Origin: Campylobacter cuniculorum DSM 23162 = LMG 24588 | GTDB taxonomy: Bacteria; Campylobacterota; Campylobacteria; Campylobacterales; Campylobacteraceae | NCBI RefSeq assembly: GCF_002104335.1 | Contig: NZ_CP020867.1 | Location: 1,059,206-1,091,205 of the forward strand | DNA: 32,000 bases | Direction of reading: 5' to 3' | In this document: one piece after another, positions 17,649 to 31,724 of the stretch | How positions within the stretch are numbered: position 1 is the stretch's first letter | Layout: every line of letters starts with the position of its first letter | Position numbers and translations under genes: made by a program | Notes under the pieces: model-generated | Seen by the model: the letters and a program-made list of their open reading frames with translations, nothing else | Database searches by the model: none | Told to the model about the DNA's origin: nothing

Positions 17649-17661
17649 AAATTGCACTTAA
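17649..17661 (+). repeat. left copy of the 13-bp direct repeat AAATTGCACTTAA at the island boundary
   Basis: Exact match to 31712..31724. The internal intact gene copy has AAATTGCATTTAA at 19922..19934. Confidence 0.9.
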
Positions 17662-17762
17662 AATTTAAATTTTTATTTTTAATGATGTATTTTTGTTTTG
17701 AAATTGCAATATTTATAGAAATAATACCTTATGGACTTTTAGAAGGAACTATTTCGAAATGA
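17649..17762 (+). pseudogene. orphan 3' end (last ~33 codons plus TGA) of the polytopic membrane-protein gene, whose intact copy is 19556..20035
   Basis: 17649..17928 is near-identical to 19922..20195. The differences are one C/T, one G/A and a 6-nt AAGAAA insertion after the ATG. There is no 5' part upstream; upstream sequence is the fdhU flank. Confidence 0.85.
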
Positions 17763-18049
17763 AAGAAATAATAAAATATTATGCAACAATTTATGTAGAT
17801 GAGTTATTAGAAGATGAAATGTTAAAGCATGTTGATTTTTCTTTGCTATTTAAAGCAAAATTTTCTCAAATTTCTAAGCAAATCGACCTCACCCACGCTT
17901 TTTTAGGACTTACTAAAGGTAAAAGTCCTGATGAGTTAGATAAAATAGATGAAACATTAAAACAAGAATATCTTAAAAATAAAGAATGGGATAAAATAGA
18001 TCAAAAATGGTATGAAGCCAAAGAATTTAGTGAATTTATGATAGTTTAA
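17759..18049 (+). CDS. N-terminal-module-only paralog (fragment N1) of the 438-aa gene at 20032
   Basis: 96 aa. The first ~57 residues are almost identical to 20032..21348 (YYATIYVDELLEDEMLKHVDFSLLFKAKFSQISKQIDLTHAFLGLTKGKSP). It ends KEFSEFMIV*, which is the -1 frameshifted equivalent of EANEFNDGFW in the full-length gene. It retains the His but lacks the Cys-containing part. Confidence 0.7.
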   Translation: MKEIIKYYATIYVDELLEDEMLKHVDFSLLFKAKFSQISKQIDLTHAFLGLTKGKSPDELDKIDETLKQEYLKNKEWDKIDQKWYEAKEFSEFMIV

Positions 18050-18095
18050 GAAATTTTTTCTTACTGAAACAATCAAAATTTTAAATAAATTATCT

Positions 18096-18101
18096 TATAA
18101 T
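18096..18101 (+). promoter_or_regulatory. candidate -10 box (TATAAT) carried inside the repeated cassette, upstream of the membrane-protein gene
   Basis: TATAAT lies 29 nt before the TTG start, with AGGAG RBS in between. The identical element recurs at 19522..19527 and 31312..31317. Confidence 0.4.
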
Positions 18102-18129
18102 AGAATAACTTATTATATTAGGAGTAATT

Positions 18130-18588
18130 TTGCAAATTCCTATTTATTCTAAACTCAAAGCAAAACTAGAAAGTAAAGGAATAGACAATATATCAAGCGG
18201 ACAAATTGCTTGGTTTGTGTGTAGTTTGGTTCTTGCTTTGGTGACTTTTCTTATTGTCTATTTTACAGGGATTGTTGAAGATAAAAATTTATTTTTAGCA
18301 ATATTTGAATTGTTTCGATGGCAACTATTTATTTTTATCATATACTTTTGCATTCCTTTTAATCTATTATATATTTACAATGCCATTCCTTTGGTTTTGT
18401 CTAGTATAATTATGTTTTTAATAGTTATATATTCTGGCATAGATTTTTTTATTATTAATTGTTGTGGGGTAAGCATATTGCTTTTGTTGGCTTTTTTCAA
18501 AAGAAAATTTATATTTAGCGTTTTATTATTTGCCATTGGTTATATTTGTTCATATTTTTTGCTTTATGCAATTGCAACTTATCATTAG
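18130..18588 (+). CDS. polytopic membrane protein, immunity-like, variant 1 (constant N-terminus, variable body)
   Basis: 152 aa. TTG start after AGGAG. The first 38 aa (MQIPIYSKLKAKLESKGIDNISSGQIAWFVCSLVLALV) match 19556 and 31346. Beyond nt 18243 the sequence is unrelated but still 3-4 hydrophobic helices. Confidence 0.7.
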   Translation: MQIPIYSKLKAKLESKGIDNISSGQIAWFVCSLVLALVTFLIVYFTGIVEDKNLFLAIFELFRWQLFIFIIYFCIPFNLLYIYNAIPLVLSSIIMFLIVIYSGIDFFIINCCGVSILLLLAFFKRKFIFSVLLFAIGYICSYFLLYAIATYH

Positions 18589-18600
18589 GGAGATTTATAA

Positions 18601-18939
18601 ATGAAGTATTATGTAACGATTTATATTGACGAGTTATTGGAATTTCAAACAATAAAAGATTTGTGAAATATGAAAGGTTTAGACCTCACCCACGCCTTTT
18701 TAGGACTTACTAAAGGTAAAAGTCCTGATGAGTTAGATAAAATAGATGAAACATTAAGACAAGAAAAACTTAAAAATATTGATTGGAAAGATTTTGATAA
18801 GAAATGGTATGAAGCTAAAGAAGCTAATGAATTTAATGATGGTTTTTGGGGCTTTGGAATTGGAATGAATTCTGTTAATGTTACGACTAATAAGGTATTA
18901 AAAAATAATCAATGTATAGCAAGGGATATCTATGAATAA
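18601..18939 (+). pseudogene. fragment N2 of the 438-aa gene family, interrupted by an in-frame TGA
   Basis: The ATG at 18601 gives MKYYVTIYIDELLEFQTIKDL, then TGA at 18664..18666. The same frame continues NMKGLDLTHAFLGLTKGKSPDELDK...EANEFNDGFWGFGIG, homologous to codons 1-117 of 20032..21348. It diverges and stops after NNQ. Confidence 0.75.
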
Positions 18940-29484: not shown

Positions 29485-29904
29485 CACTCAAAATCTTTAA
29501 TATACTTTTCCAATGCTTTTAGGGTAAGATTCTCAAAAAGAATCTTATCTTCTTTAATATTGTTTTGTATGGCGGTTTATGGATATTTTGACTTAATAGA
29601 TAAGAGGTTTGAAACAAAAAAGGTTGAAAATACAAGCAGACAATCAACCCCTATCATCACTTACACTGACATATTAGATAATACTTACAATAAATATATC
29701 GCAGTGGAGCTAAATCCACGAACAAATCAATACGAAAAAATTGGCAAACTCAATGGCGATTTCTCCCCATTCCAAGCCAAACAATTCTTTTCTCGCTATG
29801 ATTTATTAAAACATTGCCCTAATACAGATTCAGGTTTTTCTGCTACTTTGTTTTACGATAAAGAAAAAGATAAATTTATAATAGGGTTTAGGGGGACAGA
29901 GTGA
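29476..29904 (+). pseudogene. class-3-lipase-like gene fragment A, truncated right after the GFRGTE strand
   Basis: 142 aa ending ...PNTDSGFSATLFYDKEKDKFIIGFRGTE*. (S/T)GF-A-x-x-F...x-A/G-FRGT is the lipase_3 strand that precedes the GxSxG nucleophile elbow, which is absent. The N-terminus is unrelated to fragment C and carries a hydrophobic segment. Confidence 0.55.
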
Positions 29905-30239
29905 GAACACTAAAATTTTTATATATTGTTTGGATGGTATTTTGGGGTTTTTTTACTATTTTTGGTGTTGCTTTTGGACATCATGGCTATAATGATAATG
30001 TAATTCTTACCGCATTGTATTTATATTTGTTTTTATGCCTTTTTCCATTATTACCTTATTTTTACTATTTAATTTTTGGGAAAACAAAAAGCAAAAATAT
30101 ACTTGTTGCTATTTGTTGCTATTTGTTGCTATTTATTATTATGTTAATAGCCGATGATATAAATATCATCTATTTTATTCTAGCTATCATTATACATACT
30201 GTAACATTTAGCATAATTTATTGGATAAAAAGGGCTTAA
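29901..30239 (+). CDS. small polytopic membrane protein (paralog of 30400..30666)
   Basis: 112 aa. GTG start 4 nt after AGGGGGA. MRTLKFLYIVWMVFWGFFTIFGVAFGH resembles MKILKILYICWIILCVVGWFISPIVGH of the next copy. Contains a 10-bp x3 tandem repeat. Confidence 0.6.
   Translation: MRTLKFLYIVWMVFWGFFTIFGVAFGHHGYNDNVILTALYLYLFLCLFPLLPYFYYLIFGKTKSKNILVAICCYLLLFIIMLIADDINIIYFILAIIIHTVTFSIIYWIKRA
30101..30130 (+). repeat. 10-bp tandem repeat, three copies (ACTTGTTGCT ATTTGTTGCT ATTTGTTGCT)
   Basis: Read directly. Lies inside the 29901..30239 ORF. The unit length is not a multiple of 3. Confidence 0.9.
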
Positions 30240-30240
30240 T

Positions 30241-30315
30241 TTGAAACAACAAATTAACAATCTCAAAGACTACGCTGAACTAGCCCAAGCTAGTTATTTT
30301 AATTTTAATTTTTAA
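30241..30315 (+). pseudogene. class-3-lipase-like gene fragment B (first 24 codons only)
   Basis: TTG AAA CAA... gives LKQQINNLKDYAELAQASYFNFNF*. Compare the N-terminus of 30675: MKTQINNLKDYAELAQASYFYFDF. Confidence 0.6.
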
Positions 30316-30399
30316 AAAGGTATAATGATTTTATTAAAAATATTAAAAAGGAAGATAAATGGGTTTATTAAAGAAAATTTATATCATTTGGGGGATACA

Positions 30400-30666
30400 A
30401 TGAAAATATTAAAAATACTTTATATTTGTTGGATTATATTATGTGTTGTAGGTTGGTTTATATCTCCTATTGTTGGACATAATCCAGATAGAGTGTATGA
30501 ATTTTTTGTAATGCTAGGTTGGATAGTCTTTCCACCAATGATAGCCAATCTATGGCTTTTTGGAATAACAAGAATTAAAAAATATTTGATAAGGTTTTTT
30601 CTATTATTGTTATATTATCCTGTAGCTTTTATTATTTTTTTAATAATTGTTCGTTCAAGTTTTTAG
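30400..30666 (+). CDS. small polytopic membrane protein (paralog of 29901..30239)
   Basis: I prefer the ATG at 30400 (88 aa, MKILKILYICW...), preceded by GGGGGA, over the ORF-track start at 30325. It has the same architecture as the previous small membrane protein. Confidence 0.6.
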   Translation: MKILKILYICWIILCVVGWFISPIVGHNPDRVYEFFVMLGWIVFPPMIANLWLFGITRIKKYLIRFFLLLLYYPVAFIIFLIIVRSSF

Positions 30667-30674
30667 GTGACTAA

Positions 30675-31265
30675 ATGAAAACTCAAATTAATAATTTAAA
30701 AGATTATGCAGAACTTGCACAGGCTAGTTATTTTTATTTTGATTTTTTAAATACTAGAAATATATTTGAGTTAGATTCTAATCAAGAAAAAATTCAAGAT
30801 AAGAATTCTCTTAGAAGCTATAGAGAAATAAAAGTAAATTTAGAACATGTTGTAAGTCAAAAATATAAAGATAAAGAAGTATTGATTGATTTAAGACAAG
30901 ATGATGCTTGGCAATCAAAAATGTTAAATTTCTTTGATGAAAAAACAAATTTTGATAAACTCAACGGAGAATTTAGTGAAATCCAAGCACAAAACTTTAC
31001 TAAAAGATATGAGATTAGATTCCACCAACCAAATACAAATTCTGGTTTTTCTGCTACTTTGTTTTATGATAAAGAAAAAGATAGGTTTATAGTAGGGTTT
31101 AGGGGGACGGAAACTGATAATTTTATTGGCTCGGTTCAAGACATAGCTCAAGACATAACTCTATCTCTTAATGGCAATATCCAATCTTCCCCTCTTTTAG
31201 AATTTTTAGAACAAGCGGATAAAATAAATAAATCCAAAGAATTTAGTAAATTTATGATAGTTTAA
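30675..31265 (+). pseudogene. class-3-lipase-like gene fragment C, 3' end replaced by the repeated cassette
   Basis: 196 aa. ...PNTNSGFSATLFYDKEKDRFIVGFRGTETDNFIGSVQDIAQDI..., then from nt 31234 the sequence becomes the cassette and the protein ends KEFSKFMIV*, the same tail as fragments N1/N3. No GxSxG is reached. Confidence 0.6.
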
Positions 31266-31724
31266 GAAATTTTTTCTTACTGAAACAATCAAAATTTTAA
31301 ATAAATTATCTTATAATAGAATAACTTATTATATTAGGAGTAATTTTGCAAATTCCTATTTATTCTAAACTCAAAGCAAAACTAGAAAGCAAAGGAATAG
31401 ACAATATATCAAGCGGACAAATTGCTTGGTTTGTGTGTAGTTTGGTTCTTGCTTTGGTGTGTGCTGTGTTTGTTGTTTTGTATAAGCTTAAGAATTTAGA
31501 AATTAGGCTTTATGTTATTTTTTTATTTCCCATCTTGCTATTTTACATTGCTATATTTTGGTTTATTTTTTTAAGTTTTTATAAAAACTTCTTTTTTGTC
31601 CATCTTTTTTGTTATTTTTTTATGTATATCTTTAATATAATTTTTGATGATTTTTATTTAAATCTTGCAATAATGAATATTTTATTAATGATAATATGGC
31701 TTTTTTTTATTAAATTGCACTTAA
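31234..31724 (+). repeat. 491-bp cassette, copy 2 (ends at the island boundary)
   Basis: Identical to 19444..19934 apart from one C/T. Similarity ends exactly after AAATTGCACTTAA. Confidence 0.9.

Follow-up and report, generated by a model that had tools for sequence, protein, structure and literature searches.

A probable displaced copy of a type VI secretion-associated gene block in a cassette-like island of Campylobacter cuniculorum

Campylobacter cuniculorum is a bacterium of rabbits, and a type VI secretion system (T6SS) can be pictured as a "nano-harpoon." We analyzed 32,000 nucleotides of the chromosome of C. cuniculorum DSM 23162 = LMG 24588 (RefSeq assembly GCF_002104335.1, contig NZ_CP020867.1, positions 1,059,206–1,091,205 of the forward strand). 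This whole stretch is called the window, all coordinates refer to it, and features lie on its plus strand unless stated otherwise. The window contains an accessory island of ~14.06 kb (17662–31724), the ends of which were placed to the base by means of a metagenome contig (L001) in which the same site is empty. Positions 1–10338 of this contig correspond to window 7324–17661 at 99.5% identity, and positions 10317–10613 match window 31703–32000, i.e., the flanks are joined without the island, and the uracil-DNA-glycosylase (UDG) gene directly follows tusA. Because L001 runs from the left flank straight into the right flank, 17662–31724 is extra DNA. This agrees with a first-pass annotation, made from the sequence letters, which had proposed an island of about 14 kb at 17649–31724 with all genes on the plus strand; all substantial open reading frames (ORFs) do lie on that strand, in an unbroken run from 17.76 to 31.8 kb.

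The flanks were compared in ten contigs obtained by exact look-up of the TusA protein. One contig, from GCA_000621005.1, matches window 7323–17960 at 100% identity over 10.6 kb and ends there. In eight more metagenome contigs (DRR8551xx, SRR277281xx, SRR292730xx, and ERZ27249405), the flanks are 98–99% identical, and the contigs end 17–49 bp past the left edge of the island and contain the occupied junction; their assemblies break at repeats. As eight contigs have the occupied junction and the empty site was found in L001 only, the island seems to be common, but not fixed, in natural populations.

An intact five-gene operon extends from 19556 to 27454. It encodes, in this order, a polytopic membrane protein of 159 amino acids (aa) with ~4 transmembrane (TM) spans (19556..20035), a 438-aa candidate effector (20032..21348), a 454-aa putative toxin carrier (21338..22702), and two conserved partner proteins of 1152 aa (22699..26157) and 428 aa (26168..27454). 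The genes of the TM/438-aa pair and of the 454-aa/1152-aa pair overlap by 4 bp. To place the operon, we used three loci as synteny references: the Campylobacter jejuni plasmid pCJDM202, Campylobacter sp. W0018, and Campylobacter coli CP019977. The operon is syntenic with a block in pCJDM202 that encodes a 141-aa TM protein and proteins of 432, 455, 1140, and 410 aa, and this block directly abuts tagH-tssM-hcp-tssL-tssK-tssJ-tssA-tssB-tssC. The 438-, 454-, 1152-, and 428-aa proteins share 66, 91, 83, and 86% aa identity, respectively, with their pCJDM202 counterparts, and the plasmid DNA is ~91% identical over window 21002–27383. In Campylobacter sp. W0018, the order 1140, 410, tagH, tssM, hcp occurs inside a differently arranged T6SS cluster, and C. 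coli CP019977 has the same block, in which the carrier bears an additional lysozyme domain. When genome contigs were searched with the 1152-aa protein, only loci of C. jejuni and Campylobacter sp. were retrieved. Two side observations concern the reference loci. The 1140-aa-type gene of W0018 (10001–13027 in the coordinates of that locus) matches in several pieces, some of them overlapping, and may be frameshifted or mosaic. In C. coli CP019977, the carrier–lysozyme fusion is directly followed by the gene (11863–12222, locus coordinates) of a protein of 119 aa that has a signal peptide; this protein is absent where the carrier has no lysozyme domain, as in C. cuniculorum, and it is likely to be a periplasmic immunity protein against the lysozyme.

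The island also contains a trace of the T6SS cluster itself. On the minus strand, 29487..29588 preserves the last 34 codons of tagH, the T6SS gene with an FHA domain, at 88% aa identity to residues 266–299 of pCJDM202 TagH, and the DNA of 29460–29573 is 94.7% identical to the pCJDM202 junction between the 410-aa gene and tagH. Thus homologs are linked to T6SS core genes in pCJDM202 and W0018 and a tagH remnant lies in the window, as would suit a T6SS auxiliary cluster. Both complete C. cuniculorum genomes have been scored as T6SS-positive, with a single cluster and two copies each of tagH and vgrG; the supplementary entry for LMG 24588 reads "14 (x2 TagH)," with one cluster and two vgrG (PMC9676060). 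The block itself has been described in silico in the CJPI-1/CJIE3 elements of C. jejuni as CJ488_0946–0948 and CJ488_0964–0965, mostly without function (PMC8285248). The first-pass annotation had suggested a polymorphic toxin/immunity locus tied to a T6SS, and the block beside tagH-tssM-hcp, the tagH remnant, and the toxin-fused relatives of the carrier described below all speak for it. Its other suggestion, a distinct system without secretion apparatus that has not been described, does not fit a species scored as T6SS-positive (PMC9676060) or a block that is already in the literature (PMC8285248), and we consider it unlikely.

The 454-aa protein appears from its relatives to be a toxin carrier of the polymorphic-toxin type, because these relatives fuse the same module to different toxin domains. 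It shares 91% identity with A0W69_09055 of pCJDM202, which in turn is 94% identical to CJ488_0948, a homolog in which a "novel PAAR-like domain" was predicted (PMC8285248). An exact look-up of the 454-aa sequence returned no record, and a HMMER search of 1.84 billion representatives yielded just 140 clusters of the family; tblastn located the protein in plasmids of Campylobacter (38) and Helicobacter (one). Close relatives of 620–790 aa end in a C-terminal Phage_lysozyme domain, and in 50 diverse relatives Pfam detected Phage_lysozyme, Tae4, TNT, SLT, DUF5675, and Mbeg1-like domains. Seven relatives of 1050–1250 aa have N-terminal lipase domains homologous to the lipase stubs of the island. 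The copy in the island has no toxin domain, and toxin-less carriers of 451–457 aa are common in C. jejuni and C. coli. The idea that relatives of 1800–1900 aa join the carrier to the 1152-aa protein was rejected, as no similarity was found.

The AlphaFold2 model of the 454-aa protein (predicted local distance difference test, pLDDT, 87.8) has three domains, the central one being a Cys/His domain at residues ~140–256. Its core keeps C156, H158, G160, C193, P203, and C204. Four of these, C156, H158, C193, and C204, show ≥90% conservation across 50 diverse relatives and do not vary among 20 isolated domains, and as a set they would suit a structural metal site. The first-pass annotation had read this region as a four-Cys module of the DUF4280/PAAR-like type; three Cys and one His are present, and membership in DUF4280 (PF14107) was not supported, with no match to this Pfam model for the 454-aa protein at E ≤ 0.1 or for its 50 relatives at E ≤ 0.001. 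As a control, we aligned the products of eight plasmid genes that all match Pfam DUF4280 (best E 5e-37), some of which adjoin vgrG or tssH, and hhalign gave the carrier domain a probability of 38% against this alignment. In that comparison, the first-strand motif C-x-H-G-G-x-V of the carrier (~146–166) aligned with the last-strand motif C-x-x-G-G-x-I of DUF4280 (P 3.3e-4), a likeness that could stem from a structural unit common to both or be due to chance. A circularly permuted DUF4280 was not supported, as the same 17-column local match was obtained at every cut point.

The 438-aa protein (C. cuniculorum ARJ56683.1, 100%) is the candidate effector of the operon. The 119 members of its family come from Campylobacter and enterohepatic Helicobacter, and a 55% paralog (ARJ56608.1) is encoded at another place on the same chromosome. 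In 38 relatives of 41–80% identity, H44 within the motif THAFLGLT is near-invariant (≥90% conserved), and C146 and C193, the latter in NNC-x-x-W, are invariant. LRAT and enzymes of the TseH type belong to the papain-like His/Cys enzymes, and the order of such enzymes, a His followed by a Cys of the catalytic type, is found in the 438-aa family with H44 and C193. The AlphaFold2 model (pLDDT 80.9, predicted template-modelling score 0.84) had as its top fold match in the PDB the Vibrio cholerae T6SS effector TseH (6v98; E 0.079, prob 0.85, template-modelling scores 0.19/0.39). Among the 38 relatives, sub-threshold matches to DUF2459 occurred in 22 (best E 4.2e-4) and to LRAT in 8 (best 0.0074), all under the gathering scores. 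Searches of PDB sequences with this protein, with the 428- and 1152-aa proteins, and with two family profiles gave no match. The PPPDE-like His/Cys pair proposed earlier at 20032 is therefore retained at the level of the superfamily, where the TseH, DUF2459, and LRAT signals are weak but consistent; PPPDE itself was never among the family matches of the 38 relatives. From these signals, the protein is probably a papain-like His/Cys hydrolase, and its N-terminal half is a candidate permuted NlpC/P60-LRAT-type hydrolase or acyltransferase. The pair of TM gene and effector-candidate gene recurs in pCJDM202 (141 aa, then 432 aa, with a 4-bp overlap) and in C. coli. Because the two genes are translationally coupled both here and in pCJDM202, the 4-TM protein upstream would be the best immunity candidate for the 438-aa protein.

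The 1152-aa protein is 100% identical to C. cuniculorum ARJ56685.1 and also carries the accession QOR04159.1, and is thus present in both complete genomes of the species; its identity to proteins of C. jejuni, C. coli, and Campylobacter lari is 83–92%. Its gene always adjoins a 428-type gene, and together the two lie directly beside tagH in clusters of two different arrangements. The 428-aa protein, which has no signal peptide, is 86–93% identical to the C. jejuni homologs that abut tagH. Searches of Pfam, NCBIfam, and the PDB gave no family, structure, or motif match for the 1152-aa protein or for the 428-aa protein and its 580-aa paralog. A 92% paralog of the 1152-aa protein (ARJ56082.1) lies at another place on the same chromosome; together with ARJ56608.1, it indicates at least three copies or pieces of the block in the species.

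Downstream of the operon, an 86-aa ORF (27477..27737) is a stub of the 1152-aa-type C-terminus, with 76 residues 71% identical to residues 1071–1146. A C. coli homolog of 1312 aa shares mainly the C-terminal ~280 residues with the 1152-aa protein, the end that is also kept in this stub. The next gene (27737..29479) encodes the 580-aa paralog of the 428-aa protein, which is 51–60% identical to it in two blocks, contains an insert of ~170 aa, and starts with a lipoprotein-type signal (…FTLNAC). A similar arrangement was noticed in C. coli CP019977 (16448–17732, locus coordinates), where the 428-type gene is split into ORFs of 223 and 192 aa and an intact paralog of 422 aa comes next. Other species therefore also show tandem duplication and decay of this gene, as in the 428/580 pair.

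The two ends of the island carry direct repeats of a short core sequence. The left, attL-like copy (17639..17661, 22–23 bp) reads TTTTTAATTAAAATTGCACTTAA, and the right, attR-like copy (31703..31724) reads TTTTTTATTAAATTGCACTTAA; a third copy lies inside the intact membrane-protein gene (19913–19934), and the empty site holds a single one (L001 10317–10338). A gene of the 159-aa type is split across these ends. Its 5' three-quarters, cut at the core, occupy 31346..31724 (the listed ORF continues to 31816 in the flank), and the junction alignment shows that 17639..17760 is the 3' remnant of a 4-TM membrane-protein gene that completes it. In the self-comparison of the window, on which our account of fragments and repeats is based, 31228–31724 is 99.4% identical to 19438–19934 up to the core, and 17639–18047 is 90.8% identical to 19913–20315. 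The gene halves overlap by the core alone, and a circular form would restore the gene. This would be the signature of a Campbell-type integration of circular DNA at a short shared sequence. Owing to the att-like 22-bp direct repeats and the gene split across the ends, the island looks like an integrated circular cassette, and the direct repeats at both ends with a matching empty site are features of an integrative element. Pfam and NCBIfam scans of ten island proteins, among them every large one, matched no integrase, transposase, or relaxase, and no encoded recombinase was found in the island with these families. The earlier remark that mobility genes are lacking is thus correct as to genes, and has to be supplemented by the att-like repeats and the split gene. 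A tRNA-targeted integrative element was rejected; Rfam and tRNA scans of the window revealed no RNA gene. Judging from these ends and from the ~91% nucleotide identity to a C. jejuni plasmid, the island appears to have been acquired horizontally and inserted as a cassette.

The part of the island upstream of the operon consists of gene stubs and orphan genes. Three 5' stubs of 438-aa-type genes are each followed by a small membrane-protein gene. The first stub (17759..18049, 96 aa) is 83% identical to residues 2–91 of the 438-aa protein and precedes an orphan polytopic membrane protein of 152 aa with ~4 TM spans in hydropathy plots (18130..18588), a candidate immunity protein. The latter is 62% identical to a 155-aa protein encoded upstream of the C. 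coli 431-aa gene, and its first 38 aa are identical in both other copies. The second stub (18601..18939) includes an ORF of 89 aa (18670–18939) that is 78% identical to residues 38–119, and the 432-aa protein of pCJDM202 matches it from 18601 on. Behind it, two short overlapping ORFs of 72 and 52 aa (18932..19272), the former with ~2 TM spans by hydropathy, are possibly a split small membrane-protein gene. The third stub (19269..19475, 68 aa) immediately precedes the operon. The layout of a stub followed by a TM gene also precedes the full-length gene in pCJDM202 and C. coli. A repeat of ~230–500 bp, 98–99% identical at 18012, 19438, and 31228, supplies the tail KEFS(E/K)FMIV to three unrelated ORFs, namely KEFSEFMIV to the first stub, KEFSKFMIV to the third, and KEFSKFMIV to the lipase stub at 30675.

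The right-hand part contains remnants of lipase genes. Behind the 580-aa gene, ORF 29476–29904 starts as the antisense of the tagH remnant, crosses a terminator-like hairpin of 13 pairs (29521..29551), and contains, in its 3' part, a 5' stub of a lipase-type effector gene (29563..29904) that ends at GFRGTE, before the GHSLG nucleophile. Residues 30–142 of this ORF match the N-terminus of a C. coli 500-aa lipase (45%), and residues 91–142 are 71% identical to the product of ORF 30675. ORF 29476–29904 was therefore rejected as a real lipase gene: it is a chimera and not a gene. A second 5' lipase stub (30675..31265, 196 aa) is joined at 31228 to the repeat tail and lacks the catalytic serine motif; it shares 87% identity, over 189 aa, with a lipase of C. 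coli that continues into GHSLGG, the island copy being cut at ~187, and is homologous to the N-termini of the 1050–1250-aa lipase-plus-carrier fusions. Full-length relatives of the stubs match Mbeg1-like (4.7e-8) and, below threshold, Lipase_3. The class-3-lipase resemblance noted at 29476 and 30675 in the first-pass annotation is thus real, in two truncated stubs of which the first is part of a chimera; neither ORF has a complete class-3 lipase (PF01764) or Mbeg1-like domain with GxSxG, and since both stop before the nucleophile, neither can encode an active enzyme. Between them lie two small polytopic membrane proteins recognized by hydropathy, both candidate lipase immunity proteins, and a 68-bp remnant of a lipase gene 5' end (30250..30317, 82% identical to 30684–30751). 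The 112-aa protein (29901..30239) is 50% identical to a 114-aa C. coli protein encoded beside a lipase gene, and the protein listed with 113 aa (30325..30666) is 52% identical to a 101-aa C. coli protein encoded between two lipase genes. The alternating small membrane-protein and lipase genes of C. coli CP019977 are syntenic with window 29.9–31.2 kb.

By hydropathy, ~4 spans are predicted in the 152-, 159-, and 156-aa proteins and ~3 in the 112- and 113-aa proteins. These proteins and the lipobox at 27737 are in line with the many small membrane proteins and the lipoprotein reported earlier, as are the fragmented paralogs, fused tails, and duplicated downstream genes revealed by self-comparison. 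Profile hidden Markov model scans (Pfam, NCBIfam, PADLOC, and PHROGs) of ten island proteins yielded no significant match. To the left of the island lies housekeeping DNA, as had been stated, with genes labeled by Pfam as cstA, prs, two SBP_bac_3 genes, a permease, purM, ridA, yeeE, and tusA. The shift in composition noted earlier is found on average (GC content 26.7% in the island and 31.4% to the left); it is not uniform, and 26168–29479 reaches 31.7%. A promoter scan gave fewer matches than in shuffled sequence. In the left flank, the two adjacent solute-binding-protein paralogs share a 66-bp stretch, 85% identical (12027–12092 and 12783–12848), which looks ordinary, as does a 32-bp palindrome (5319–5350) in the spacer behind a gene ending at 5311, probably a terminator.

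In the CJIE3/CJPI-1/pCJDM202 elements of C. jejuni and C. coli, tagH is flanked by the block described above; based on these results, we hold it quite probable that the island is a copy of this block that has been displaced and scrambled by recombination. The island is best described as an orphan, partly decayed T6SS effector/immunity island in a T6SS-positive species. We infer each step of the following working. The operon at 19556–27454 would supply a spike-associated delivery unit to a T6SS encoded elsewhere on the chromosome. The 454-aa protein, which by its context may work like a PAAR-type carrier, would ride the VgrG spike via its central Cys/His domain, a presumed PAAR-like metal knuckle; carrier relatives would bring a covalently fused toxin, which the island copy does not have. 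The best candidate for a cargo toxin would be the 438-aa protein, as a hydrolase or acyltransferase of the NlpC/P60-LRAT-TseH type, with the translationally coupled 4-TM protein upstream as its putative immunity protein or partner. The 1152- and 428-aa proteins, as constant partners of the carrier, may be adaptors or further cargo. The rest of the island would be a record of cassette turnover, in which orphan small membrane-protein genes stand beside 5' stubs of displaced 438- or lipase-type toxins and may have been kept for protection, as candidate immunity genes. The circle would have entered the tusA-udg spacer by recombination at the 22-bp sequence inside the membrane-protein gene, without a recombinase of its own.

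Several points weigh against this interpretation. At the level of structure, Pfam PAAR and DUF4280 had no match in the 20 isolated Cys/His domains even at E ≤ 10, the hhalign probability of 38% is confined to 17–21 columns (P 3.3e-4), a Foldseek search of the carrier model against the PDB and BFVD returned no PAAR fold, and the match of the 438-aa protein to TseH is weak (E 0.079, template-modelling scores 0.19/0.39). The membrane proteins are candidate immunity proteins only, and this includes their pairing with toxins. Many pieces of the island are fragments, and part or all of it may be inert. PMC9676060 is the single source for a T6SS in this genome, and the block is also kept in T6SS-negative strains such as RM1221 (PMC8285248, PMC9676060). 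We found in the literature no secretion, toxicity, or immunity test of any block gene in any Campylobacter, and according to a 2026 preprint, no C. jejuni cargo effector had been characterized before its own two.

The same evidence of decay might be taken further, to an inert relic: a leftover from beside a T6SS that was copied into the tusA-udg spacer by recombination and is decaying with its products unused. At least 8 of the ~18 ORFs are stubs or chimeras, tagH is reduced to 34 codons, the catalytic part is gone from both lipase genes, and the 454-aa carrier has no toxin domain. We nevertheless consider this explanation unlikely, as the operon keeps long frames (438, 454, 1152, and 428 aa) with overlapping stop and start codons in a genome of 25% GC, the 1152-aa protein is kept in both complete C. 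cuniculorum genomes (ARJ56685.1 and QOR04159.1), and the toxin-less form of the carrier (451–457 aa) is common in C. jejuni and C. coli. The block could also be independent of the T6SS, with the 438/454/1152/428-aa quartet and the membrane proteins forming a self-contained toxin-export or contact-dependent system that merely travels beside T6SS genes. This would account for an island without T6SS core genes, for the block and its PAAR-like domain in T6SS-negative genomes (PMC8285248, PMC9676060), for a central carrier domain that fails the DUF4280/PAAR tests, and for two large proteins that match no known fold or family. It is very improbable in view of the adjacency to tagH in two different cluster arrangements together with the tagH scar in the island, the T6SS-typical Tae4 among the fused toxins, four proteins without signal peptides, membrane anchors, or an ATPase, and a host genome scored as T6SS-positive (PMC9676060). 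Finally, an AT-rich accessory island at a variable site, with a phage-type lysozyme domain in some relatives, might suggest a phage-derived or anti-phage defence island. This was rejected as having almost no chance of being right: none of the ten proteins matched a PADLOC or PHROG family, no tRNA, integrase, or structural phage gene was found, and the surroundings in relatives are T6SS and conjugative-element genes.

A bolder version of the T6SS reading can be put forward, although we regard it, taken as a whole, as rather unlikely. The island would be an integrase-less circular cassette that hops among Campylobacter plasmids, CJIE3-type elements, and chromosomes via a ~22-bp att site in its own membrane-protein (immunity) gene; the spike-tip unit would be built on a Cys/His domain non-homologous to PAAR/DUF4280, the TseH/LRAT-like cargo would be neutralized by a polytopic membrane protein, and the 1152- and 428-aa partners would have new folds. 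If true, this would be a new architecture of T6SS loading, beyond another PAAR–effector pair. As it stands, the island adds one more example to a known kind of locus and is not a new system, and as a discovery it is incremental, because loci of this kind, and most of the genes found in this one, have already been catalogued in silico. Two major food-borne pathogens, C. jejuni and C. coli, have the block alongside their T6SS, and in C. cuniculorum nature provides a minimal version of it, in which five intact genes are surrounded by neither T6SS core genes nor a plasmid backbone. This copy offers a convenient handle on the roles of the 438-, 454-, 1152-, and 428-aa proteins, on the spike-tip nature of the Cys/His domain, and on immunity by membrane proteins. 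Moreover, the att-like ends and the ~91% nucleotide identity with a C. jejuni plasmid indicate that small cassettes carry T6SS weaponry from one Campylobacter species to another, which bears on the spread of competitive fitness traits in animal reservoirs.

The closest known counterpart is the C. jejuni CJPI-1/CJIE3/pCJDM202 block (A0W69_09045–09055 and the upstream 432-aa gene RS10160), which agrees with the island in its genes and their order, in the stub that lies upstream of the TM gene, and in the lipase/TM arrays nearby. In contrast to that block, the island is detached from T6SS core genes, with 34 tagH codons left, and lies in another species at the chromosomal tusA-udg site; an integrase, TraG, and a plasmid backbone are all absent from it, its lipases are cut short, and it has the 580-aa lipoprotein paralog in addition. 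Like the Aux (auxiliary) clusters of V. cholerae and the orphan modules of Rhs and contact-dependent inhibition (CDI) systems, it is remote from a main cluster and combines a spike-associated carrier with candidate toxins, tandem orphan candidate immunity genes beside toxin stubs, signs of cassette replacement by recombination, and transfer across species. It differs from these clusters and modules in that it contains no hcp or vgrG, that its stubs are the 5' ends of toxin genes, where Rhs/CDI orphans typically have 3' toxin tips, and that its candidate immunity proteins are small polytopic membrane proteins. The carrier domain resembles the PAAR (PF05488) and DUF4280 (PF14107) spike tips in being small, mainly of beta-strands, and equipped with conserved Cys/His residues, and its family shares with these proteins the N- or C-terminal fusion to diverse toxins and the location beside T6SS genes; unlike them, it sits between two further domains (residues 1–133 and 269–454). 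The 438-aa protein, lastly, is like TseH (VCA0285) and the NlpC/P60-LRAT-DUF2459 enzymes in that a His precedes a Cys and both are conserved, with every similarity to TseH, DUF2459, and LRAT below the threshold of significance. It differs from TseH/LRAT-type enzymes in an extra helical C-terminal half of 220 residues and a second invariant Cys (C146), and from TseH in that its candidate partner is a membrane protein and not a periplasmic one.

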